Positions 3,546 to 60,551 of a stretch of 64,000 nt of DNA are shown here, one piece after another. This DNA comes from an uncultured Gammaproteobacteria bacterium. Lineage in GTDB: Bacteria; Patescibacteriota; Patescibacteriia; Magasanikbacterales; UBA922. Location of the stretch: contig CAYMVY010000001.1 of NCBI GenBank assembly GCA_964394405.1, positions 102,546 through 166,545 on the forward strand, given 5' to 3'. Every line of letters begins with the position of its first letter. The first letter of the stretch is position 1. Made by a program: the position numbers and the translations under genes. The notes beneath the pieces are model-generated. The model saw only the letters and a list, made by a program, of their open reading frames with translations, made no database searches and was not told the DNA's origin.

Positions 3546-3722
3546 AGTAGAAGTAGTTTCAAAAAGTATATCAAAAGTGAAGAATCTACGCCAAATTAGC
3601 AAATTGCAGTGTACCAAAACCAAGAGGAACTGTCAAGATAAACTATTTTAAAGAGTATAGTTGCTCCCCCGTTGCTACTAGCAAAAAAAAATGCTATAGT
3701 GTGCATATTCTAGTCTTTTTGT

Positions 3723-4451
3723 ATGCGCATCCAAGCCCTCAAAACAACGGGATATGTCCTACTTACCCTGGGAGGAATTATTCTGACAATATTTCTTTTT
3801 TTCTTTGTATACTATACCTGGCAGCTCAAATACGGGTCAACAGAAAACCGCCAAAAAATCACACGATCCCTCGAAGGGTCATTTACACAAGCATACAAAA
3901 CCGACGCAACTGCTCCGGCATTTAGAAATGACTGGAGTTCTTTTATTCAACCTACAAACCCGTCTCTCGGCGATCCGAATGCTCCAATAACGATACTTAT
4001 GTTTATCGATTTTGAATGTCCTTATTGCCAGGCGAGTTTCCCCATCTTCAATCAAGTAACCGATACTTTCGGAAGTGCAATTCGAGTAGTATTCAAACAA
4101 TTCCCGATCGAAAGTATCCATCCCCGTGCCAAGGCTGCAGCGATTGCTAGTATGTGCGCAAACCAACAAGGCGCTTTTTGGAAATTTCACAATACAGCAT
4201 TTGAAGAGGGTATGCTTGACGAAAGCTCTCTTTACGCGTATGCTAATGCGTCAAGCATGGATATCACTGCTTTTGACACATGTGTCAAAGGAAATACATT
4301 TGATAATGCCATCAACCAAGATCTCACGGACGGAATAACTCTCGGGGTACGAGGAACTCCCACCTATATCGTAAATGGAAAATTCATCGAGGGAGTACTC
4401 ACCTTTGATGAATGGAAAAACGTTATATTATCTGAACTCAATCAGCCATAA
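3723..4451 (+). CDS. DsbA-family thiol:disulfide oxidoreductase (thioredoxin fold, CPYC active site) with N-terminal TM anchor
   Basis: Motif FIDFECPYCQ plus an N-terminal hydrophobic helix. Confidence 0.75.
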   Translation: MRIQALKTTGYVLLTLGGIILTIFLFFFVYYTWQLKYGSTENRQKITRSLEGSFTQAYKTDATAPAFRNDWSSFIQPTNPSLGDPNAPITILMFIDFECPYCQASFPIFNQVTDTFGSAIRVVFKQFPIESIHPRAKAAAIASMCANQQGAFWKFHNTAFEEGMLDESSLYAYANASSMDITAFDTCVKGNTFDNAINQDLTDGITLGVRGTPTYIVNGKFIEGVLTFDEWKNVILSELNQP

Positions 4452-4464
4452 TTTCCTCTAAAAA

Positions 4465-5955
4465 ATGCCTGCCATGTCACCCTCATGTATAAAAAAAATA
4501 TTTTTTCTCTGCCTCATCGTGGCAGGTATTTTTCCTGTAACTACGCATGCCCAAATTGATCAGCGCTGCTGGCTCGAACAAGAATGCTATGATGCGCGCG
4601 CAGCACTTTTTGGAGGCGAGAAACCAAAAATAGGTGAAGTGGGATGGGACAAAGTATTCCGCCAAGACAATACTACCAAAAAACTGTGTGGAGGTGATAA
4701 AGATGCGTTGAACAAAAAAATTGGTTTTTGTCTTCCAGCAACTACCGCAAAAACAAAAATCTCTATCGGCGGACAAACAGAATTTACCGGACTTACTGAA
4801 TTTGTATCATTTATCTATACGTATGGACTCAGTGTTGCGTCTCTTCTGGCGATACTGGTGATTATTGTGGCTGGTGTACAATGGACACTATCTGGAGGGA
4901 ATACCGAAGCAATTAGCGGAGCACAACACAAAATATATGGGGCAGTGATAGGACTTGTCATACTAGCAGCCGCGTATACGATCCTCTACACCGTGAACCC
5001 CGACCTCGTCAATCTACGACCTCCCAATGCATGGATGATTAATACCCAGACAATAGGTGCCCCCTATTGCAGTGATATTACAGATAGCATGATTTCAAAA
5101 GATCCCTCAAATGCAACAGGAGAAATATTGACTAGTGAAGAGAAGCAAGCAGGTTTTGCCCTGGTTTCAGCGACAGACTGGGTATCGACTTCGACTGCTG
5201 CCTGTGGCAATGATTATTATGTACAAAAAACTGGCGCACTCACCTGTAGCGGGGATTATTGTCCAAGAACTGATGATAACAAAACACAGGTATGTTTTGA
5301 TAAAAATAGAGACGGTCGGAAAGAATGCGCAGAAGCGAGTATCGCAGGCACGATATATAATAGAGACCTGGGAGCTGAAATTTTTATCCAGCTAGGCGGT
5401 CTAGCAAGAATGTTTGCTGGCGAAGGATGGACATGGATTTGGGTAGAAGATTTCGATGTATATGTTGTATGTAATAATGGCAAACATTCAACCATCGAGG
5501 CACAGGCCAGTAATCCAGAAGATTCACTAAACGAGTCAAAAAAAGAACAACAATACTGGATATCTATCGAGGATAAAACACTGGACGCTGCAACAAAGTA
5601 TTGTGAAGATAAAGGACTGGTAAAAGGAATAGCGCTGGGGCCAGATATGAACGAATCTGGTGATATTTTTGGAGCACGAGAAAGACATATTGTGGGTCGA
5701 CACCCAGGATTCAACGCTGAAGGAGGCGCGGGTCGAAGTGTCGCTGCAGATCTAGGAGACGAGTCAAATAGTGACGATGAATGTCTTCTTAAACTAGTAC
5801 CTGCAAACTATCTAATATCAATCGAAGACTTGAAAAAAAATGGTGTGCTCCTGGATATCAATGCTCAACTTATTTTTGACATTGATGATGAGCGAGACAG
5901 AATAAAACATTATGATAAACCATTTGGATATAGCCAACATTGCTTAAACAGATAA
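4465..5955 (+). CDS. Large cysteine-rich secreted/surface protein with signal peptide and an internal VirB2/TrbC-like (T4SS pilin-like) double-TM hairpin
   Basis: Signal peptide [29 protein letters not shown] and about 20 Cys. Segment [59 protein letters not shown] matches the helix-GG(N/D)-loop-helix pattern of conjugative pilins and CPR pilin-like domains. Confidence 0.45.
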
Positions 5956-12422: not shown

Positions 12423-13709
12423 TTATTCCAAACCTAGGCTCACTTGGGTTGACAGGCCTCGAGATTCACTCTCCCCAAACACTTTGACAATACCAAACTC
12501 ACCGTCATACCCAGGACGGATATAGATATTTCCTTTTCTTACCCGATCAATGGCAGTGGCAATCATTTCGCTTGATGCATTCTGTATTTCTTGAAGTCCT
12601 GCATGGAGTAAAATAAAAAATTCACTGCCGAATTTTTCAACCAGCGAATTATACTCAGTAATCACTTTTTTTGAAGAAACACCAACCTGGTACACATCTG
12701 CAATAATCTCTGGAAGTGGAACAAGAGATTTAAACGGAATACGTTTTGTCTGAAACGCATGCTCTCTCGCTTCATCACTCGTTCGATCAGCAAGTTCGTG
12801 CACTCGATATTCCACTCCAATCGTTAACTGTTTCCCACACACCGGGCATACACCTTTTCTTTTTCTCGTTTCTTCAGGATTACAATAGAACTTACAATCT
12901 CGATGACCATCATAATGATATTTCCCCTCTTCGGGATAAAATTCAATCGTATACGCAAACTTGTTTGTATCCTGTTCTTCAATAATACGAAATATTTCAC
13001 TATACGTAGCTTCTTCTGCTGAATTGAATTGTAGAACATTCGCCTCTCGACCCAACTTCTGCAAACTATGTGCATCAGAACTTGAAACAAGCGCAATATT
13101 ATCAAGATGTGACCACCTCCAATTCATGAGGGGATCACTTGAAAGCCCAGTCTCAATCGCACGAATATATGGTGCGAGGTCTTCGAATGCTTCGTTAATC
13201 GAATTATACCCGCCTTTAGAGCCAAAAATTCCAAACCAAGGAGTCCAGGCATGTGCCGGGATCATTTTCATCCGAGGATCGACTTCGAGCATGAGTTCAA
13301 GAATCTGTTTTGACGTAAGCCCGATAATTGGTCGACCGTCTGAGCGAATATTGAACCCTCTGGTTTCCAAAACATGATTAAACTTTTCTGCAGACTCCAA
13401 ATTAGGAGCAAAAACAAGCAAATGAACACGCCGTGTCTGGTCCCCATGCTTTTTAATTGACGCAATCTCAGTGCCAATAATAAATCGCGTCTTACTTTCA
13501 TGATTTTTGAGCTTATAAATGCCCTCAATATCCGGGATAAGCTCACTCTTCATATGGTCAAACCATTTTGGATGAGTGAAGTCACTAGTAACCATGATAT
13601 CAACACCACGAACTTCGCAGGCTCTAGCAATTTTGGGCAACTCAAGATCTTTTGAGCAAGCTCGTGAATATTTGGAATGTGCATGCAAGTCGAGGACCTT
13701 CTGAATCAT
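12423..13709 (-). CDS. Endonuclease Q-like PHP-domain nuclease with C4 zinc finger
   Basis: From internal ATG: MIQKVLDLHAHSKYSRACSKD... Motifs VTSDFTHPKW, RVHLLVFAP, IPAHAWTPW, SSSDAHS..LGREANVL, GVCPVCGKQ, ELAD and LPEIIADV, in the order and spacing I recall for archaeal EndoQ. Length about 428 aa. Confidence 0.6.
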   Translation of the reverse strand: MIQKVLDLHAHSKYSRACSKDLELPKIARACEVRGVDIMVTSDFTHPKWFDHMKSELIPDIEGIYKLKNHESKTRFIIGTEIASIKKHGDQTRRVHLLVFAPNLESAEKFNHVLETRGFNIRSDGRPIIGLTSKQILELMLEVDPRMKMIPAHAWTPWFGIFGSKGGYNSINEAFEDLAPYIRAIETGLSSDPLMNWRWSHLDNIALVSSSDAHSLQKLGREANVLQFNSAEEATYSEIFRIIEEQDTNKFAYTIEFYPEEGKYHYDGHRDCKFYCNPEETRKRKGVCPVCGKQLTIGVEYRVHELADRTSDEAREHAFQTKRIPFKSLVPLPEIIADVYQVGVSSKKVITEYNSLVEKFGSEFFILLHAGLQEIQNASSEMIATAIDRVRKGNIYIRPGYDGEFGIVKVFGESESRGLSTQVSLGLE

Positions 13710-13753
13710 AAAATGAAGTATAGTTCTCCCCCTAGTCACAAGTAATAGGAAAA

Positions 13754-14110
13754 TTAGGTAAGAGAAGTGAGATGCAAACAAATAACAAATATCTTGTCTG
13801 TCACTTTTTCTCGTTCTTCTAAAATTTGAATGCGAGTAAATTTGACGATCGTATAACCTCGACCAAGTAGCCAATCCTCACGATACCCATCGCGTTCTCC
13901 CTCTACTACCTCTTCAACCACTTCTACAATAAGCTTCAACTCAGAACAATAAAAATCCACGCTATATGGCCCCAATGAAACCTGCGACTTGAACTTATAC
14001 CGCACACTATTTTTTGCAAGTTCCTGCCAAAGTACACAAAATGCGGCAGAAAGAGAAAAAGAGCCTTCGCGATGTTCCAAGGTTTTGTCGTAGAATTGTA
14101 CTTTTTTCAT
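13754..14110 (-). CDS. DUF559 / Vsr-like (very-short-patch-repair-type) endonuclease-fold protein
   Basis: From internal ATG MKKVQFYDK...; core YSVDFYCSELKLIVEVVEE is typical of DUF559. Confidence 0.65.
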   Translation of the reverse strand: MKKVQFYDKTLEHREGSFSLSAAFCVLWQELAKNSVRYKFKSQVSLGPYSVDFYCSELKLIVEVVEEVVEGERDGYREDWLLGRGYTIVKFTRIQILEEREKVTDKIFVICLHLTSLT

Positions 14111-32023: not shown

Positions 32024-32115
32024 ATGCAGAGCCTAACACAATTTTTCCCATAACGTCAAACAAAAAATCCGCGTTGAGCGGAAAATTTTGGCAAACAAAA
32101 AACTGAGTACAGAAT

Positions 32116-32221
32116 CTAGGCGCCGACCTACTCTCGCCTTGCGACTACCATTGGCGCTGAAGGGCTTAACTGCCGTGTTCGGGATGAGAACGGGTGGACC
32201 CCCTTCGCAAAAAGCACCTAG
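32116..32221 (-). rRNA. rrf: 5S rRNA
   Basis: Minus-strand sequence ...GGTCCACCCGTTCTCATCCCGAACACGGCAGTTAAGCCCTTCAGCGCCAATGGTAGTCGCAAGGCGAGAGTAGGTCGGCGCCTAG matches the 5S consensus (CCGAAC, GGTAGT, AGAGTAGG). Confidence 0.8.
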
Positions 32222-32284
32222 ATTCTATACTCAGTCTATATTGTAAAGTAACAAAGTTGTTGCAAGCAAGCATTCTTCATAAAC

Positions 32285-35650
<3,366 letters not shown>

Positions 35651-36090
35651 TGTGTTTCATGTATATTCAAAGATGCTAACTTACAATTAGATTGCGTATC
35701 TCAACCGTAGCCGAGACATACGCAATTTGCTTTATTACTTTCATTGGTTAAATTGTGAACGATCACTTATCGCGAGTACCTTTCGGCGCGCAGTCTATGC
35801 AATAGTGTTTATTGTGCAGACTGCGATCTAAAAGTGTGAATGATTTTTTTGATAAAAAAAGAACCGCTACAAGCGGTCCTAAACATTGGCATGTTTATAT
35901 CCGCCTGGATACTCAGAGTAACAACGAGTTGTATCTTGTGTACACCATGTGTTCAGGATGTAGAAGTACGTATGTTGTGTTACCCAGAGGTCCAAACTGA
36001 ATTGCGTGTGTTTTTGGACATGGTCCGAAGATTCTTCGGGACTTGTTCACGCTCGCACATAGTACAGTTTTTTATATCCCCTGTCAAGCT

Positions 36091-36369
36091 TTATCTGTGT
36101 GGATAAAAACGCACGGTCGTAGAACCTCCATGAGAGTCCAAAAAAAAGGCTTCAATCAGCGGATTTTGACTCAGTTCTTCTTCGATAATCCCTGCCAAAA
36201 CCCCTTCCCCAACCCCATGTACAATGCGACAAAAATCGCACTTATTCACAACTAGTCTATTCAGTTCAAAATTTAATTTTTCTCGCACTTCACTAGCCTG
36301 AAAACCATGCAGATCAATCACGGGAATATTTTGTAAGTGTTCAAAGAATTGTGTGTCGATGCGAGACAT
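36091..36369 (-). CDS. Smr-domain protein
   Basis: IDLHGFQASEVREKL...VVNKCDFCRIVHGVGEGVL, the Smr signature. A minus-strand hairpin plus T-run at about 35860-35890 lies downstream. Confidence 0.7.
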   Translation of the reverse strand: MSRIDTQFFEHLQNIPVIDLHGFQASEVREKLNFELNRLVVNKCDFCRIVHGVGEGVLAGIIEEELSQNPLIEAFFLDSHGGSTTVRFYPHR

Positions 36370-36600: not shown

Positions 36601-37395
36601 TTACTCGAGACCGGCGCTTTCCGGTCTGTAGTGAATCGCGATGGCTTCGCTTATGAATTCCTCGTAGAGGTTTTCACTGCGTACACCACCGTCTTTTTCA
36701 TCGACGGCTTCGACGTCAACAAGCTGAGTCCTGATCTTCGCCATCCCGATACGTTCAGGAATGCGAATGGTGCCCATGAGCTTGAGGACTAGTCCACGTT
36801 CAGACAGAACCAAACCGGCTTCTTTTCCGGAAGTGCCGTCCTCCTCGACGACAGTGAATATCACCGTGGTCTGGTTGAGACTATCCCACATGGGGTCAGC
36901 CTTGAAGGTCGCAGCGACACTGAAACGATTCGTCGTGATGTCGAAGTCGGTCACGAACGGGAGCTCAGTTTCAGGATTGTAGAACGTGCGAAGTACATCT
37001 TCATTCCCCTGGGCCGGAGGAACGAAAAGCCGGTAGGTCAGCGAAGTGATTCGCTTACCCTTGAAGTGGTCACCACAGGGGATGATGCGGGCGTAATGAA
37101 ACGCCTGCTCCTGCCCCACATACGCGACCTCGGACTCGAGCGAGAGCGGTAGAACGAGGAAATCGTTGGAACCACAGCGCTCGACCACCAGCTGAGGGAG
37201 GGTTTTAACCTCCTTGACCTGACACGTTTCGATGGAACCCTGAGCCAGGGGCATCTCAGTCGACGAGTCGACAGCCGAGACGGACGACAGCCGAGGATGC
37301 TCGGGAGGCGATGGATTATCGCATCCGGCGTACAGGTTGAACGCGAAGATGTAGATGGCGATGCAGATGAACTGTGACGGAAACTTCTTAGACAC
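36601..37395 (-). CDS. GC-rich hypothetical lipoprotein (GTG start, SD AGGAGCAACCACC, lipobox LYAGC)
   Basis: VSKKFPSQFICIAIYIFAFNLYAGCDNPSPPEH... Region is about 55-60% GC against a 40% background. The alternative-frame ORF 37038-37424 is a GC artefact. Confidence 0.6.
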   Translation of the reverse strand: MSKKFPSQFICIAIYIFAFNLYAGCDNPSPPEHPRLSSVSAVDSSTEMPLAQGSIETCQVKEVKTLPQLVVERCGSNDFLVLPLSLESEVAYVGQEQAFHYARIIPCGDHFKGKRITSLTYRLFVPPAQGNEDVLRTFYNPETELPFVTDFDITTNRFSVAATFKADPMWDSLNQTTVIFTVVEEDGTSGKEAGLVLSERGLVLKLMGTIRIPERIGMAKIRTQLVDVEAVDEKDGGVRSENLYEEFISEAIAIHYRPESAGLE

Positions 37396-37614
37396 GGTGG
37401 TTGCTCCTGATTGCGTGTGATCACTCGAGATGTGTCTATCTCGAAGCTGCAAGAGTATAGAGTAAATAATGAATTTTGTCAATATAATATATAAATAAAA
37501 CAACCGTCATTAGCGGTTGTCATATACTCTTGCAATATAAAAATAATCATTTTTTTATGTACTCACCATACTACAAAATAGTGTATTCTGTACTATACAG
37601 TAACATACAACAAA

Positions 37615-42825: not shown

Positions 42826-43581
42826 TCAATTCCCTGCGGTTGCGACAGCGTAAAACGCCATAGAACCAGACAAGGGAGCGAGAAAATTGTCATCGAAAAG
42901 TTCAGCAAAAAGAGTAGTGCCCTTCTCACACAAACTCTCGAAGTATCCACTGACCAATGTTGCCGCAACAACCGCGCACGCAACAGACAGGTCCGAATAC
43001 GAGGACGGATACAACGGGAACCACCAGTCGAGCACGACCGTGATAAGCCCAGTAATCACCCCGGTGTAGAAGTAACCGATGGCACCGATCCACGTCTTGG
43101 TTCCACCCTTCCACACTGGCTTTTTGCCCCAGGCAATGCCCGAGAGCCGAGCAGCCGGGTCACCAAATGCGAATATCACCACCGCAGGAACCACTGCCCA
43201 CAGCGGAACACCGATCGCAAGCGGAATGATGATCCCCACAGTGAAATGAATCGCAGTAGCAGGCTTCCCGCGTTCACTCGACCTAATGACACCAGTCTGT
43301 ATGAGGAGCCATTTCTCGAGAAAGAGGAATGTCCGTGACAGCCACGGTACACGAAAATACGGCTGTCCCGTGTCCTTCCAGTTGCGTACGAAGAAGTGGT
43401 AGAGAGGAATGCGAATGCAGATGTCGAAGGCGGAGATACCCCCGCCAAAGATGAGTGCAGCAGCGACCTTTTCGTCATCACGAAACGGGAGAATCATCCC
43501 GAAGATGATGGCGATGACACCGATCGAAGCGTGAAAGACTGCTCGCCCCACCTGAGACGTAATCTTATGATGAGCTTCCAT
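42826..43581 (-). CDS. GC-rich CTP-transferase-1 family (CdsA/dolichol-kinase-like) integral membrane protein
   Basis: FAFGDPAARLSGIAWGKKPVWKGGTKTWIGAIGYF resembles the CdsA/polyprenol kinase signature. Region is about 55-60% GC. A hairpin plus T-run lies downstream at about 42770-42812. Confidence 0.55.
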   Translation of the reverse strand: MEAHHKITSQVGRAVFHASIGVIAIIFGMILPFRDDEKVAAALIFGGGISAFDICIRIPLYHFFVRNWKDTGQPYFRVPWLSRTFLFLEKWLLIQTGVIRSSERGKPATAIHFTVGIIIPLAIGVPLWAVVPAVVIFAFGDPAARLSGIAWGKKPVWKGGTKTWIGAIGYFYTGVITGLITVVLDWWFPLYPSSYSDLSVACAVVAATLVSGYFESLCEKGTTLFAELFDDNFLAPLSGSMAFYAVATAGN

Positions 43582-43688
43582 GATAGACCTCCAGAGCCAG
43601 AGAAGCCTTGCCTCTTGTATCATTTCCAAAACAAAAAAGCAAGGGAAACCTTGCTTTTTATAATCTTCAATTTTTGATCTTTCTTTAA

Positions 43689-52083: not shown

Positions 52084-52974
52084 TTATCGTGTCATGTACA
52101 CCCCATCATCAAACACATTGACGAGCGGAAGAAACTCGACTGAGTCGATAGCTAGATTGGTTGAGACAACCCCGAGTGACACTTCTCTCGTTTCCCCACC
52201 TTTGAATTGAGAAATGGTAAGTGGTGCAATACCAACGGTTTCTGAACCCCGTTTAAGAAGCACAATACCTGAAAATTCCCAAAAATCAAATAATGAATTG
52301 TTAGTGACAGAAAACTGTACAACCGGCAAACCGCTTACCGACCCTTCAGAACTCGAAAGATAGGTTGGCTCACTCGTTGAAATATCAATACGCTGGGCTA
52401 TAAATGCAGCGGGGTCAAAAACATCATGCGGATCTACCCGTTTCCAAGTTATGAAAACTGGTTTGAAGTTCATAGTTTCTGGTCTACTTGAAGACTCATA
52501 CCCAAATACCGCAAGTGGCTGAGTATGTCCTGGCAATATCACTGCAGTCTTGTTCTCTGTAGCGCCAAGAGAATTCTCAAATTGGTAGACCACTGTCGCA
52601 ATCCACGAAGTATTTGGATTGGCAGCTTGTACCAGTAGATCATACCGATCAGCAATACCTGAAAACAGTTGTGGCGAAGAAAAAGAAAGTTCTTGAGGTC
52701 TCAAATTTCGTACTGCTTCAGAAGAAATATATGAATAAGAAAGATTCTGAAGATTAATCCGATCCTGGCTATACTCAAAAATAAAATATTTCCCAACAAC
52801 AAACAGTGTGGTACCCAGAGTCACGACACTCCATACAATAAGAAAATACACGAACACTCTCCGAAGAGTCTCATGGTGTTTGGCATACCACGTAGCCATC
52901 TTGAGACTATGATTCGAAAATTCTCCGGTGGGATCTTCGTAACGGCTCAAGAGAGATTGTTTTTTATCATTCAT
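52084..52974 (-). CDS. Hypothetical membrane-anchored protein
   Basis: One TM helix (VFVYFLIVWSVVTLGTTLFVV) followed by a roughly 230-aa extracytoplasmic domain. Start is at the internal ATG; the ORF in the track begins with TTG. Confidence 0.55.
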   Translation of the reverse strand: MNDKKQSLLSRYEDPTGEFSNHSLKMATWYAKHHETLRRVFVYFLIVWSVVTLGTTLFVVGKYFIFEYSQDRINLQNLSYSYISSEAVRNLRPQELSFSSPQLFSGIADRYDLLVQAANPNTSWIATVVYQFENSLGATENKTAVILPGHTQPLAVFGYESSSRPETMNFKPVFITWKRVDPHDVFDPAAFIAQRIDISTSEPTYLSSSEGSVSGLPVVQFSVTNNSLFDFWEFSGIVLLKRGSETVGIAPLTISQFKGGETREVSLGVVSTNLAIDSVEFLPLVNVFDDGVYMTR

Positions 52975-53156
52975 AATGGATATAAGTATAGCACAATAAA
53001 AAGGCAAAAGGAAAAAGTAAAACTTGTCCTGAGCGAGGTCGAAGGAAGCAAAAGAACAAGCTTGCTTTTCATATATACGTATGCTAAACTAGTCACCGAA
53101 AGTGTGTGTTTTTAATCTGTATAATCCTGTATTTCAATCAGTGAAATCAATGTGAT

Positions 53157-55249: not shown

Positions 55250-56077
55250 ATGTTTGAAATAGCAAGTTCAACAGAATTCATATTCAAATGGCAAACATTA
55301 ATCGGCAGCGCGTTAGGTCCTTTCCTTGCTGTGATACTTTCGGCTATCGGTTTTTGGATTAAATCCACTATTAAAAACAAAAAAGAACGGAAGGAATCTC
55401 TAAGGAGAATAGAAATTAGTGTTACAAAAAGTCTCAACGACGCTTTCACTGTTTGCGAACAACTCAAGTGGTTTTCGCAACGAATAAAAAATTTAATAAT
55501 TGAATCAAAATCTATAGTGGATAACAAAATCTTTTTCTTAAACCGAATAAATTTCCCAACAACAAGAGAGATCTATCGAGATATTGATATGTCTATCTTC
55601 AAAGTCAAAAGCTATTATTTGCACAACAAGCTTATGTGGATAGATGCGGGAATAAAAGAAACCAATGAAACTATATTAAACCTAAAAAAAGATTTTGAAG
55701 ATTTAATACGACAAAATGAAATACTAATTGCTGTGATGAGAGATAATCCGAATCCCCTCCTCCAAAGAGAAGCATACGAAAGAAACTTAGAATCATTTTC
55801 AAAAGCAATGGACGACTATGTTTCAAAAAGTATCAAGTTAGGTATCGAAGTCATGACACAAATAAAAATCTACAACGAAAAATTGCGAAAAAAATATGGC
55901 TTTTGGTTTTTATGGAAACAAGAAGGAACCAAACTTAAATATTTCCACAATAAGACAGAGCAGAGGACATTTGCTCGAAATCTTGATTCCTTAGATCGTA
56001 TTGATAATGCAATAAAAAAAGACGTGGAATCTTTGATAAACAAAATGGAAGAAAGAGCTAAAAAATTAGCTCAGTAA
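55250..56077 (+). CDS. Hypothetical membrane-anchored coiled-coil protein
   Basis: N-terminal TM (LIGSALGPFLAVILSAIGFWI), then a K/E-rich predicted coiled coil. Confidence 0.55.
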   Translation: MFEIASSTEFIFKWQTLIGSALGPFLAVILSAIGFWIKSTIKNKKERKESLRRIEISVTKSLNDAFTVCEQLKWFSQRIKNLIIESKSIVDNKIFFLNRINFPTTREIYRDIDMSIFKVKSYYLHNKLMWIDAGIKETNETILNLKKDFEDLIRQNEILIAVMRDNPNPLLQREAYERNLESFSKAMDDYVSKSIKLGIEVMTQIKIYNEKLRKKYGFWFLWKQEGTKLKYFHNKTEQRTFARNLDSLDRIDNAIKKDVESLINKMEERAKKLAQ

Positions 56078-56696: not shown

Positions 56697-57485
56697 CTAC
56701 CGAAGCAGCTCATCTTTCAGTTTAAGCAGATTCGGTACATAAGGAAGACCAGTCTCGAGGAGCCGACGATGGAGCTCGCGTTTCATTCCACCCACACCAT
56801 CTTTCTTATAGATGGTGCAAACATCAAAGAAACACTCCCACCCCTGCTTCACCGCAAACGAACACTCCTGCTCGTACGCATCAATCTCTGTATTGAACCA
56901 GACACGAACATGATCTTCACTCGGTACGTCATCGCGGTTCTTCACGGTGAACATTTCGAGAGGTGCGTGTTTGAGCTCATACTGCTTGTAGTGGACAAAC
57001 TCGTGCAGTAGAACCATTTGCAGGAACTGTGGACTCTCTTGAGGGTTGAGGAGGTTGCTCAGGGAGACATTCATGACAGGGGTCATGCCCCTACCATGGA
57101 TATCAAGAACCATAAACTGGGCGACAGATGCCCCTCTCTGAAGGTCATTGTCCTGTAGATTCAGAAAGAGATCGCCTTTCACAATGAGCTTATGCATCTC
57201 GACACTGATCTCAGGGGCCGGATGCGAGAGTACCAGATCCTTGAGGACTAGACTTGCGTCCTGGCTCACGATCCTGCGAGGCACGCTGGCTACTACCAGA
57301 GCTTCACATGAGTTCATGGGCCGGCTCACGTGGGGGCTAGTACTGACACCACCACCCTTCGTCGTGCTCTGAGTGGGTGTCGCCACTTTGACCACGACGA
57401 GCGCGACCACGATGCCGAGGACGACGAGTAACCACTTCCACCAGTCATGGGTGCGAACAGTTTTGACGTTGGTACGACGAGCCAT
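56697..57485 (-). CDS. GC-rich islet gene: membrane-anchored protein with HExxH zinc-metallopeptidase motif
   Basis: From the ATG with SD AGGAGAG: MARRTNVKTVRTHDWWKWLLVVLGIVVALVVV (TM) ... MVLLHEFVHYKQYE. Downstream hairpins at 56595-56625 and 56644-56670. Confidence 0.55.
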   Translation of the reverse strand: MARRTNVKTVRTHDWWKWLLVVLGIVVALVVVKVATPTQSTTKGGGVSTSPHVSRPMNSCEALVVASVPRRIVSQDASLVLKDLVLSHPAPEISVEMHKLIVKGDLFLNLQDNDLQRGASVAQFMVLDIHGRGMTPVMNVSLSNLLNPQESPQFLQMVLLHEFVHYKQYELKHAPLEMFTVKNRDDVPSEDHVRVWFNTEIDAYEQECSFAVKQGWECFFDVCTIYKKDGVGGMKRELHRRLLETGLPYVPNLLKLKDELLR

Positions 57486-57582
57486 GGAACACTCTCCTGT
57501 GTATGAGAAGGAACACCTCAGTAAAGACCGTTCTTTAAAGAGACTAGAGTTTATACCATTTCTTACCGGTTTTGTCAACCGT

Positions 57583-57611
57583 ATTGACATATGTTATATC
57601 ATGTGGTATAG
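57583..57611 (+). promoter_or_regulatory. Consensus sigma70 promoter (TTGACA-17-TATAGT) for secE-nusG-rplK
   Basis: ttgacatatgttatatcatgtggtatagt, about 50 nt upstream of secE. Confidence 0.6.
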
Positions 57612-59153: not shown

Positions 59154-60551
59154 ATGAAAAAGATTATCTTATTAAGTACACTTCTTGTTCTTGCTACGAT
59201 TCTATTTCCGCACACAGGCAATGCAGCAGAGACCTCCTGCGCCTTGAAGAAAAAAAATGCGTATAAATCATCGGTGAATGCTGATGTGTACTACATTACT
59301 GAGAACTGCACCAAACAAATTTTTCCCAATGAATCAGTTTTTTTCATGTACTTCAATTCGTGGAATAAAGTTATCTTGACTGACGATCTCACTCTCAGAT
59401 TTATACCAAACGATCCACAAAAATACGTGCCAGGAGAGGGATCGGCGCGACCAGGTGAAGATACCGGGGATCCCGAACACAATTCATCATCCGGCTCAGG
59501 TTCTTCAGGAGATACTGAACGATCATCAACACTAATTGTACGCGATGGATCAATTATCAAAACACGTACATCAGGTGATATTTATGTAGTCATCAATAAT
59601 GTAAAATTCCATATTGAAAACATGGAAACACTTCAGGAATTAAACATCCCTATACGCTGGGTAGAAATAGTATCTCAAAAAACTATTGATTCAATCCCAA
59701 GCGGAGCATCGCTCAACGTACACCCAAACAAAAGTCTCATGAGCCAGGCAACACCTGATTTTATACTCTTGAAGGATAAAAACAGTTCATCCGTATATCG
59801 TGTAGAACCAAGTACCAAAGATCCCAAATATCAGGTGCTCAGAAAAATTTCCAATGAAACAGCGCTTCGAAAAACCGGTTATCGTCTGGATCGTTTACCA
59901 CAAGTAAGTATTGAAGAAATACCCGAATTATCACTCATTGGCGTAGGGTCAAAAACAATATTCCGCAAAGGCACAGACCTCTCTTCAAATGCAACTATTT
60001 CATACCAAGGGGCATTCGCAAAAATTATTGAAGAAAAACGCAGTGCAAAAAATGAAGGTGCATACCTACGCAATGAAAAATACGACGGAGTCTCCTATGA
60101 ATACCCCTGGCAATACAAAGTAGTCCGCGGATTCTCCTATAGCGGAGCATTCAGAGACGAGTACACCGCAGTATTCTTCCCACCAAACAATACAAGCGTC
60201 TCACTTGATCTAAAAGTTGCTCCACTACCACACAAAAATTCTTCGTACAACACGAGTGAATTGGATGAACTGATCAAGAATACTCACGATGATGCGCTCA
60301 AAACACGTCTTCCCAATGCGACAACAGTTCGCAGATCTTCGACCGAATGGAAGAGGCAATCAACCTACGGATACACACGCACCACCAATCTGGAATTCTA
60401 CGATGGTACACTCGAGCGTCGTATAACATTTATCTACAAAAACCAAATTTTTTCTGGCGTTATTCACTATAGTTTATACGCATCTTCTGGAGTCGAGACT
60501 GATCTCGAGAACGTTCTCTATTTCGTCGCGAGTACGTTTAAAAAAAGCTAA
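59154..60551 (+). CDS. Hypothetical secreted protein (signal peptide, 465 aa)
   Basis: MKKIILLSTLLVLATILFPHTGNA signal peptide plus a Ser/Gly-rich linker. No known domain. Confidence 0.6.
   Translation: MKKIILLSTLLVLATILFPHTGNAAETSCALKKKNAYKSSVNADVYYITENCTKQIFPNESVFFMYFNSWNKVILTDDLTLRFIPNDPQKYVPGEGSARPGEDTGDPEHNSSSGSGSSGDTERSSTLIVRDGSIIKTRTSGDIYVVINNVKFHIENMETLQELNIPIRWVEIVSQKTIDSIPSGASLNVHPNKSLMSQATPDFILLKDKNSSSVYRVEPSTKDPKYQVLRKISNETALRKTGYRLDRLPQVSIEEIPELSLIGVGSKTIFRKGTDLSSNATISYQGAFAKIIEEKRSAKNEGAYLRNEKYDGVSYEYPWQYKVVRGFSYSGAFRDEYTAVFFPPNNTSVSLDLKVAPLPHKNSSYNTSELDELIKNTHDDALKTRLPNATTVRRSSTEWKRQSTYGYTRTTNLEFYDGTLERRITFIYKNQIFSGVIHYSLYASSGVETDLENVLYFVASTFKKS

Follow-up and report, generated by a model that had tools for sequence, protein, structure and literature searches.

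The stretch analyzed here, 64,000 nt of Patescibacteria DNA (the window), carries at 3723-5955 on its forward strand two adjoining genes, the first encoding a DsbA-like thioredoxin-fold protein and the second a 496-amino-acid (aa), cysteine-rich protein with an internal VirB2/TrbC-like helical hairpin. The domains of both proteins could be identified, the cysteines of the hairpin protein are even in number and conserved, and genes of these two types lie next to each other again and again in related genomes. From this we infer that the product of gene 1 acts on that of gene 2 and that the hairpin protein is displayed on the surface. The reading we favor, at a probability of roughly 0.6, is that the pair comprises a DsbA-like folding catalyst and its client, a hairpin-anchored surface protein with seven disulfides, in a monoderm Patescibacterium.

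According to this reading, the product of gene 1 would be tethered by one N-terminal transmembrane (TM) helix with its CPYC domain outside, and the product of gene 2 would be exported by Sec and lose its signal peptide. The VirB2/TrbC-like hairpin would stay in the membrane with its short basic loop (..AQHK..) in the cytoplasm, and both flanks would lie outside, the N-terminal one being 80 aa long with 4 Cys and the C-terminal one ~300 aa long with 10 Cys. The neighboring oxidoreductase would form or proofread the seven disulfides as these domains emerge, and the finished protein would be displayed on the cell surface with the hairpin as its anchor.

The two proteins and their cysteines

Both open reading frames (ORFs) were confirmed by an ORF check at the positions that an earlier note on this DNA had given, with 13 nt between them on the same strand. 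The features of the pair are as follows.

3723-4451, + strand: DsbA-like gene, 242 aa, with Thioredoxin_4 and DSBA Pfam matches and sequence relatives in the PDB
3753-3821, + strand: predicted N-terminal TM anchor of the DsbA-like protein, residues 11-33 (hydropathy)
4017-4028, + strand: CPYC active-site motif of the DsbA-like protein, residues 99-102
4465-5955, + strand: Cys-rich pilin-hairpin gene, 496 aa
4465-4551, + strand: predicted signal peptide of the hairpin protein, residues 1-29 (hydrophobic segment 4-31 by hydropathy), with putative cleavage between THA and QIDQR
4552-4791, + strand: N-terminal ectodomain, residues 30-109, with C35, C41, C75 and C89
4792-4995, + strand: VirB2/TrbC-like (PF18895) helical hairpin, helix 110-142, loop [14 protein letters not shown], helix 147-177, no Cys
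4993-5043, + strand: juxtamembrane motif [17 protein letters not shown], residues 177-193, directly after helix 2
5044-5952, + strand: C-terminal ectodomain, residues 194-496, 10 Cys, mixed beta/alpha

The DsbA-like protein has one N-terminal hydrophobic segment (residues ~8-35 by hydropathy). Because R2 and K7 precede this anchor, the positive-inside rule predicts an N-in protein with the catalytic domain outside. A GTP cis-Pro-type motif is present at residues 211-213, and the protein matches the Pfam families Thioredoxin_4 (PF13462; 3.1e-23, 83.2 bits, cut-off 23.2) and DSBA (PF01323; 1.2e-16, 61.5 bits, cut-off 25.6). Its sequence relatives in the PDB, at 1e-14 to 1e-10, are a DsbA-like 27-kDa protein (3gyk), ScsC-type proteins, chains deposited as DsbA (4pwp/4pwo) and BdbD (3eu3). 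The 622 homologs found at E<=1e-10 were only orthologs of the same lineage, and matches to TraF stayed under the cut-off (PF13728, E = 0.014, 15.7 bits vs. 23; TIGR02740, E = 0.12). Judged by sequence, the gene product is of the thiol-disulfide oxidoreductase type, in the BdbD/MdbA/ScsC branch of DsbA. The ORFs, hydropathy and Pfam matches thus agree with the earlier note, which had described a membrane-anchored CPYC thioredoxin-fold protein 13 nt upstream of the hairpin gene on the same strand.

The same note had called the second product a 496-aa protein with a signal peptide, in agreement with the ORF check, the hydropathy and the conservation of the HAQ(V/I)D signal-peptide junction in the alignment. 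Two further hydrophobic stretches, 113-146 and 156-179, contain exactly the sequence that the note had quoted as an internal hairpin, [47 protein letters not shown], and the AlphaFold2 (AF2) model shows two ~30-residue helices joined by a 4-residue turn. The juxtamembrane linker behind the second helix is the best-conserved stretch of the whole protein, with N178, P179, L181, V182, L184, P187 and W190 invariant or nearly so, and it is modeled as disordered (predicted local distance difference test score, pLDDT, <50 for residues 175-195). Its core, (I/V)NPxLVxL, is common to all paralogs whatever ectodomain they carry, and the linker is possibly a recognition or processing site.

The C-terminal ectodomain was modeled with good confidence, at pLDDT 85-95 for the most part in the full model and at pLDDT 82 with a predicted template-modeling score (pTM) of 0.79 when modeled alone. 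Foldseek returned no match at E<=1e-3, either for the full and C-domain-only models against the PDB or for the full model against BFVD; the top-ranking AcrA-type adaptors and Ig-like sandwiches had probabilities <0.5 and TM-scores <0.2 and were not used. Neither the N- nor the C-terminal domain falls within any Pfam or NCBIfam family, and a PDB sequence search with the family profile of the hairpin protein gave no match even at E<=10. Searching exhaustively with a C-domain profile, we obtained 400 cluster representatives at E<=1e-3 and 250 at 1e-10. Among the 150 matches listed, the domain always lies at ~residues 175-480 of a 450-550-aa protein, suggesting that it is tied to this one architecture. 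A second homolog search with the alignment, limited by its word index, added one protein. The C-domain has acidic motifs, NE..D..ERH.VGR or NE..D..E.H.IG, DLGD and DIDD, and few conserved positions other than Cys (H408, D429 and Y483), a pattern compatible with a metal- or ligand-binding ectodomain.

The earlier note had assigned the hairpin to the pilin family, and this stood at the level of the family and fell short for the window protein itself. Its own match to PF18895 (T4SS_pilin) covers residues 117-176 with E = 1.3e-4 and 22.4 bits, under the gathering score of 26.6, and the NCBIfam pilin-like model from a Mycoplasma integrative and conjugative element gave 0.008. When 96 relatives were scanned singly, PF18895 matched 93 of them at E<=0.01 (best, 1.9e-10). 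An ortholog from Uhrbacteria (L075; L-numbers are our handles for sampled loci) scored 51.6 bits and two paralogs (L076 and L077) 29 bits. The paralogs above the Pfam cut-off and the window protein have in common the signature AG.QW..SGGN.E.I..AK..I...SY.IL.T(I/V)NP.LV.L. We therefore accept the hairpin as a divergent VirB2/TrbC-like member of the PF18895 family on sequence grounds. It could instead be a generic two-helix anchor that resembles pilin profiles through hydrophobic composition, as the subthreshold score, the lack of a PDB sequence match and the lack of any tblastn match of the hairpin in 72,556 plasmids would allow. We consider this very unlikely, given the matches in nearly all members, the extended signature, and the fact that the only other recurrent matches among the 96 relatives are of related kinds, DUF6112 (26) and TrbC/VirB2 (PF04956; 13).

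The cysteines point to an extracellular, oxidized protein. The note's figure of about 20 Cys was an overcount: there are 16, of which 2 lie in the signal peptide and 14 in the mature protein. The hairpin protein is 3.2% Cys, vs. 1.09% for the other ORFs of the window, where the other exported proteins have 0-2. In the 96 relatives, 12 of the 14 mature Cys, among them the invariant C35, C41, C75 and C89 of the N-terminal ectodomain, are invariant or >=90% conserved, and C440 and C493 are conserved in the closer clade only. We counted Cys parity in 148 full-length cluster representatives. The N-terminal ectodomain had exactly 4 Cys in 139 and the hairpin none in 142, and the C-terminal ectodomain had an even number (6-18) in 146 (binomial p = 6e-41). 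The total was even in 65 of 67 syntenic orthologs, as were the counts in paralogs with only 2-12 mature Cys. Because the conserved, even-numbered Cys are limited to the segments that flank the hairpin, both segments are expected to lie outside and to be fully disulfide-bonded. The same topology is predicted from the cleaved signal peptide and the basic loop (AQHK) between the helices. Taken together, these data suggest that both ectodomains are very probably disulfide-bonded.

The gene pair in related genomes

We asked how often the two gene types occur together in 80 related loci (1.29 Mb) on contigs chosen at one genome per species. The search patterns were derived from the hairpin and the linker and were thus blind to the upstream gene. 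In all orthologous loci whose DNA reached far enough upstream (L002-L067), the hairpin gene was immediately preceded by a DsbA-like gene in the same orientation. The product of the latter was 62% down to 26% identical to that of the window, and the gap between the two genes was -56 to +43 nt in most loci, so that they often overlap. Over the whole 1.29 Mb, 76 of 77 DsbA-like ORFs had a hairpin ORF within 4.5 kb downstream in the same orientation, and the lone unpaired one was at the edge of a locus. The earlier note had set pairing in related genomes as a check in advance, and the upstream thioredoxin-fold gene was found at all testable L002-L067 loci and in other contexts as well.

The pairing occurs in at least four neighborhoods: at uvrA, at radA/recG, among pyruvate:ferredoxin oxidoreductase (PFOR) genes and in a paralog array. 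At radA/recG, the gene for a 664-702-aa hairpin protein is overlapped at its start by a second DsbA-like gene, which is shorter and has CAAC/CSAC. Further pairs lie among the PFOR genes of L076, in the array of L074 and L080 (two contigs of a single metagenome-assembled genome) and on a Falkowbacteria contig (L081). Related genomes have two or more DsbA-like genes, each adjoining its own hairpin gene. We also considered whether presence of the partner follows Cys-richness and rejected this: two hairpin proteins with only 2 mature Cys have an upstream DsbA-like gene as well, directly upstream in L077 and ~700 nt upstream in L079.

The paralogous hairpins carry other ectodomains. A PF18895 hairpin is joined to VanY/Peptidase_M15 in L076 (9374-10612, 412 aa) and L078 (2081-4489, 802 aa) and, by motif, in L068 (9068-11062), and to Glyco_hydro_18 (GH18) in L077 (9812-11380, 522 aa). 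These genes lie dispersed in housekeeping surroundings (PFOR subunits, radA/recG), and their products have the same linker core as the window protein. That the same hairpin carries VanY or GH18 domains suggests a modular carrier, that is, a general module by which this lineage keeps extracellular domains attached to the membrane or to a filament. A weak "EB module" match in the L068 paralog (E = 0.0035) was set aside as an artefact of the Cys pattern. In L074 (905-4627), three tandem genes of 406-409 aa, one with a PF18895 match and two without a Pfam match, precede the pair, and they may represent a paralog array like the pilin arrays of other Patescibacteria.

In F-type pilins both termini face the outside of the filament, so that terminal fusions to a pilin are geometrically conceivable. 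The 496-aa protein might be a minor or tip pilin of a type IV secretion system (T4SS), its hairpin extracted from the membrane by a VirB4-driven machine encoded elsewhere and its disulfide-rich domains serving as a host-binding adhesin on the filament. It has the signal peptide and the two hydrophobic helices with a short loop that are features of T4SS pilins (hydropathy and AF2 model), and its hairpin belongs to the PF18895/TrbC group. VirB2-like pilins have been detected with these Pfam models in 1,948 Patescibacteria assemblies (PMC12102498, PMC10633639, PMC12857230), and pilin arrays are essential in Southlakia epibionticum (PMC10633639; PMC12102498). In the class ABY1 of the Patescibacteria, to which the Magasanikbacteria belong (PMC12102498 Table S1), T4SS loci often include radA and recG (PMC12102498, PMC10633639, PMC12857230), as does the neighborhood of the paralogous pair. 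VirB4 is marked present in all 7 Magasanikbacteria genomes of the sampled loci that are listed in PMC12102498 Table S1, suggesting that this organism, too, probably has a T4SS somewhere.

The size of the protein argues against such a pilin: it is ~466 aa when mature, with 80-aa and ~300-aa flanking ectodomains, vs. ~70-120 aa for known VirB2 pilins, and a 35-kDa domain on each subunit is estimated not to fit a homopolymer. The earlier note had proposed looking for VirB4/VirB6-like genes; neither these nor VirB3 or any other T4SS gene turned up in the window, or at distances up to 10 kb in the orthologous loci (>60). Nor does the window contain a second hairpin gene, VirB4-like ATPases or type IV pilus genes. 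A Uhrbacteria draft genome that has the pair is marked VirB4-negative (PMC12102498 Table S1), and VanY or GH18 on the same hairpin looks more like membrane anchoring than filament building. Thus, we regard a T4SS pilin as an unlikely identity for the protein. The earlier note's suggestion of a surface appendage or adhesin, possibly for host-cell attachment, found no support in these data. A 68%-identical homolog is named "pilin" by NCBI, which is a misleading name for such large hairpin proteins.

Active-site variation and the role of the partner

Several observations weigh against the favored reading, in which gene 1 encodes a folding catalyst for the product of gene 2. The block of substrate-binding protein (SBP) gene-secG-dsbA-hairpin-uvrA-rplS-gmk-rluD is syntenic across the lineage, so adjacency at the uvrA locus alone is not decisive and may reflect inherited gene order. 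The sampled loci were centered on hairpin genes, with DsbA-like genes elsewhere in the genomes lying outside the sample, which therefore gives no count of the latter but does show that hairpin genes nearly always bring one with them. No re-oxidant of the DsbB, BdbC or VKOR type was found among the membrane proteins of the window, and the cleavage and topology of the hairpin protein are themselves predictions.

The active site of the partner also varies. Among 64 orthologous partners, CxxC was found in 36, the CPYC of the window included, and CPx[S/T] in 28 (those of L016, L018, L020, L021, L023, L025, L030, L032-L034, L036, L038, L039, L041-L047, L049, L050, L052, L056, L057 and L062-L064). 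In the latter the first Cys and the Pro are retained and only the resolving Cys is exchanged. The two states are interleaved on a neighbor-joining tree, where parsimony requires at least 16 switches (the tree is a rough one), and the flanking sequence classes make it evident that switches happened several times independently. In the partner of L074 (4651-5406) and L080 (695-1450), NPDL replaces CxxC and no active-site Cys is left. This protein still matches Thioredoxin_4 (7e-18), and its gene overlaps by 4 nt a hairpin gene whose product has ~400 aa and 11-15 Cys. A thioredoxin fold that is monothiol or Cys-less is unable to cycle like a standard dithiol oxidase, and such a role cannot be general.

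Synteny invites the explanation that the thioredoxin-fold gene encodes a general housekeeping oxidase for all exported proteins and lies beside the hairpin gene through conserved gene order only. The eight-gene block includes the unrelated uvrA and rplS, the gene is the sole DsbA-like one in the window, and the MdbA-like family is broad in the candidate phyla radiation (CPR), where VKOR is its commonest reported neighbor (10.1101/335083). However, the pairing recurs in at least three other, non-homologous neighborhoods and for 76 of 77 DsbA-like ORFs, and in related genomes with two or more such genes each has its own hairpin gene. The few Cys of the other exported proteins of the window leave little other work for an oxidase, and repeated loss of the resolving Cys is unexpected for a general oxidase. 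We find this explanation doubtful.

Alternatively, the partner might serve hairpin proteins chiefly as a chaperone or assembly factor, either redox-independent or monothiol, and be TraF/TrbB-like rather than an oxidase. The frequent CPx[S/T] partners with their conserved Cys and Pro, the many changes of state and the tightly linked Cys-less partner all favor this possibility, and there is a precedent in the F plasmid, where pilus extension requires TraF even though it lacks CXXC, and where TrbB acts as an isomerase/chaperone (PMC11315126). Against it, the window protein has an intact CPYC and the cis-Pro motif, and all hairpin partners have even (>=2) numbers of ectodomain Cys, which fits oxidation. 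We also considered a monothiol partner held covalently to a client with an odd Cys and rejected it: 26 of the 28 monothiol partners have clients with even Cys counts, the two odd counts being probably artefacts of a crude signal-peptide boundary, so that no free Cys and no stable mixed disulfide are implied. A chaperone or assembly factor of this kind seems improbable to us.

The favored reading is thus kept with a qualification. The earlier note's dedicated disulfide-forming partner stands as far as the recurrent pairing goes and is too simple as to chemistry, since 28 of 64 orthologous partners have CPx[S/T] and one related type lacks both active-site Cys. For the window protein with its CPYC, oxidase or isomerase activity is the most economical reading of the sequence.

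We offer a broader proposal as speculation. The VirB2-like hairpin of ABY1 may be a modular carrier of swappable ectodomains (the Cys-rich fold, VanY/M15 or GH18), each with its own thioredoxin-fold biogenesis factor, and this factor would have changed again and again from a dithiol oxidase into a chaperone that is monothiol or redox-dead. Helpers of the TraF/TrbB kind would then have evolved independently in monoderms, and the carriers might be loaded on the surface or on a filament derived from a T4SS, where they would bind the cell wall of the host or cut it, supplying the VirB1-like and adhesin functions missing from surveys of the Patescibacteria T4SS.

Gene setting, known systems and significance

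The pair lies in a stretch of housekeeping genes (42% G+C) from a small genome. The start of uvrA (5963) is 8 nt past the stop codon of the hairpin gene, indicating that the pair is part of a tightly packed co-directional run, and no terminator-like site was found either between the two genes of the pair or between the pair and uvrA. Upstream, secG and a gene of the SBP_bac_5 family are on the opposite strand. The divergent gap between secG and the DsbA-like gene is 99 nt and contains a candidate promoter, the product of a consensus scan only and not evidence of function.

3672-3700, + strand: promoter-like site (TTGCTA, 17 nt, TATAGT, with TG)

An identical copy of the 496-aa protein is found on a 596,879-bp NCBI contig, and the close relatives are all from Candidatus Magasanikbacteria. 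Many contigs with Magasanikbacteria-type synteny (L002, L005-L007, L009-L011 and others) are titled "uncultured Gammaproteobacteria bacterium", and that of L044 was deposited as "Candidatus Udaeobacter sp."; both labels look wrong.

Elsewhere in the window, a 23S rRNA gene followed by a 5S rRNA gene occupies 32115-35639 on the minus strand. The 23S rRNA has 3,343 nt vs. a model of 2,925 positions (~400 nt extra), and no 16S gene adjoins these genes anywhere in the window. Two small Cys-rich "ORFs", 33004-33369 and 35840-36106, lie within or next to the rRNA and are artefacts. At 12423-13874(-), a 482-aa protein with no Pfam match at 1e-3 matches NCBIfam TIGR00375 at 5e-51, under the equivalog cut-off, and has an N-terminal HAHSKYS motif of PHP type and a CxxxC...CxxC cluster; presumably it resembles repair enzymes of the endonuclease Q type. 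Six ORFs of 270-465 aa had no Pfam or NCBIfam match: 59154-60551(+), 36601-37503(-), 55250-56077(+), 52084-53007(-), 56697-57590(-) and 42826-43629(-). Some of these carry N-terminal signal or TM segments, and the 465-aa one looks secreted with only 2 Cys.

In Bacillus, BdbD and BdbC act with ComGC. In Actinobacteria, oxidative folding of pilins relies on MdbA and VKOR (PMC5478893, PMC9974433), and MdbA oxidizes pilins in Actinomyces (PMC5478893). Meheust et al. proposed that a CPR-enriched MdbA-like family, 3.6k.fam00998, with CxxC in 92% of its CPR members and VKOR as its most frequent neighbor, folds (type IV) pilins (10.1101/335083; PMC6744442). The window protein resembles these systems in being an N-terminally anchored DsbA-type enzyme of a monoderm whose putative substrate is a Sec-exported protein of pilus type, and it aligns to 4pwp/4pwo and BdbD. 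However, the clients proposed for them are sortase or type IV pilins rather than VirB2-type hairpin proteins, VKOR was not found in the window, and CxxC is present in only 36 of 64 orthologs here.

The hairpin protein is like the VirB2-like pilins of Patescibacteria in its Pfam family, signal peptide, two-helix hairpin and phylum, and in having multiple divergent paralogs per genome. It differs in that the hairpin is embedded between disulfide-rich ectodomains and in that its gene is single-copy, syntenic by uvrA, outside a virB4 cluster and always preceded by a thioredoxin-fold gene. The papers on those pilins (PMC10633639, PMC12102498) contain no mention of DsbA, disulfides or such fusions.

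F-type T4SS have secretion-system-linked thioredoxin-fold helpers as well, in redox-active (TrbB, with CXXC) and redox-dead (TraF) versions, whose presumed clients are the Cys-rich envelope proteins TraN, TraU and TraH of a VirB2-type pilus system (PMC11315126). These helpers are periplasmic and come from plasmids of diderms, their clients are not pilin-domain proteins, and no homology to the window protein is demonstrable beyond the fold, so the likeness is one of analogy only. In Gram-positive T4SS, anchored cell-wall hydrolases (VirB1-like TraG, PrgK and CwlT; PMC12102498) are comparable to the paralogous hairpin proteins that would hold VanY/M15 or GH18 outside the membrane. Most Patescibacteria with VirB2 homologs have no recognizable VirB1 hydrolase, and no adhesins were detected in them (PMC12102498); the VanY and GH18 paralogs could fill this missing VirB1 role. 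The C-domain of the window protein is not a recognizable hydrolase, however, and none of the known VirB1-like enzymes has a VirB2-like hairpin as its base.

Each half of the pair is therefore of a known kind, a CPR oxidoreductase of MdbA/BdbD type and a VirB2-like pilin of Patescibacteria. What appears to be new, in that we did not find it in the searchable literature, is the pairing of a thioredoxin-fold gene with a PF18895 hairpin gene, the placement of the hairpin between disulfide-rich or enzymatic ectodomains, and the repeated loss of the resolving Cys.

If the pair is a mere oxidase beside its main substrate, it would be an ordinary though neat case of oxidative folding in a monoderm. 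The repeated change from CxxC to CxxS/T would still amount to a small natural experiment on disulfide catalysis where quinone-linked re-oxidation may be lacking. Patescibacteria depend on other cells, and in the one species amenable to genetics, growth on the host requires the T4SS and the VirB2-like pilins. If the hairpin proteins are part of the host interface, they would be concrete candidates that are single-copy, lineage-wide and easily recognized, and the partner's change from CxxC to CxxS, a form that can trap a client, would provide a built-in experimental handle. "Pilin" annotations in these genomes would then hide multi-domain surface proteins. Surveys report no adhesin and few cell-wall hydrolases in Patescibacteria, and the hairpin paralogs may bear on this.

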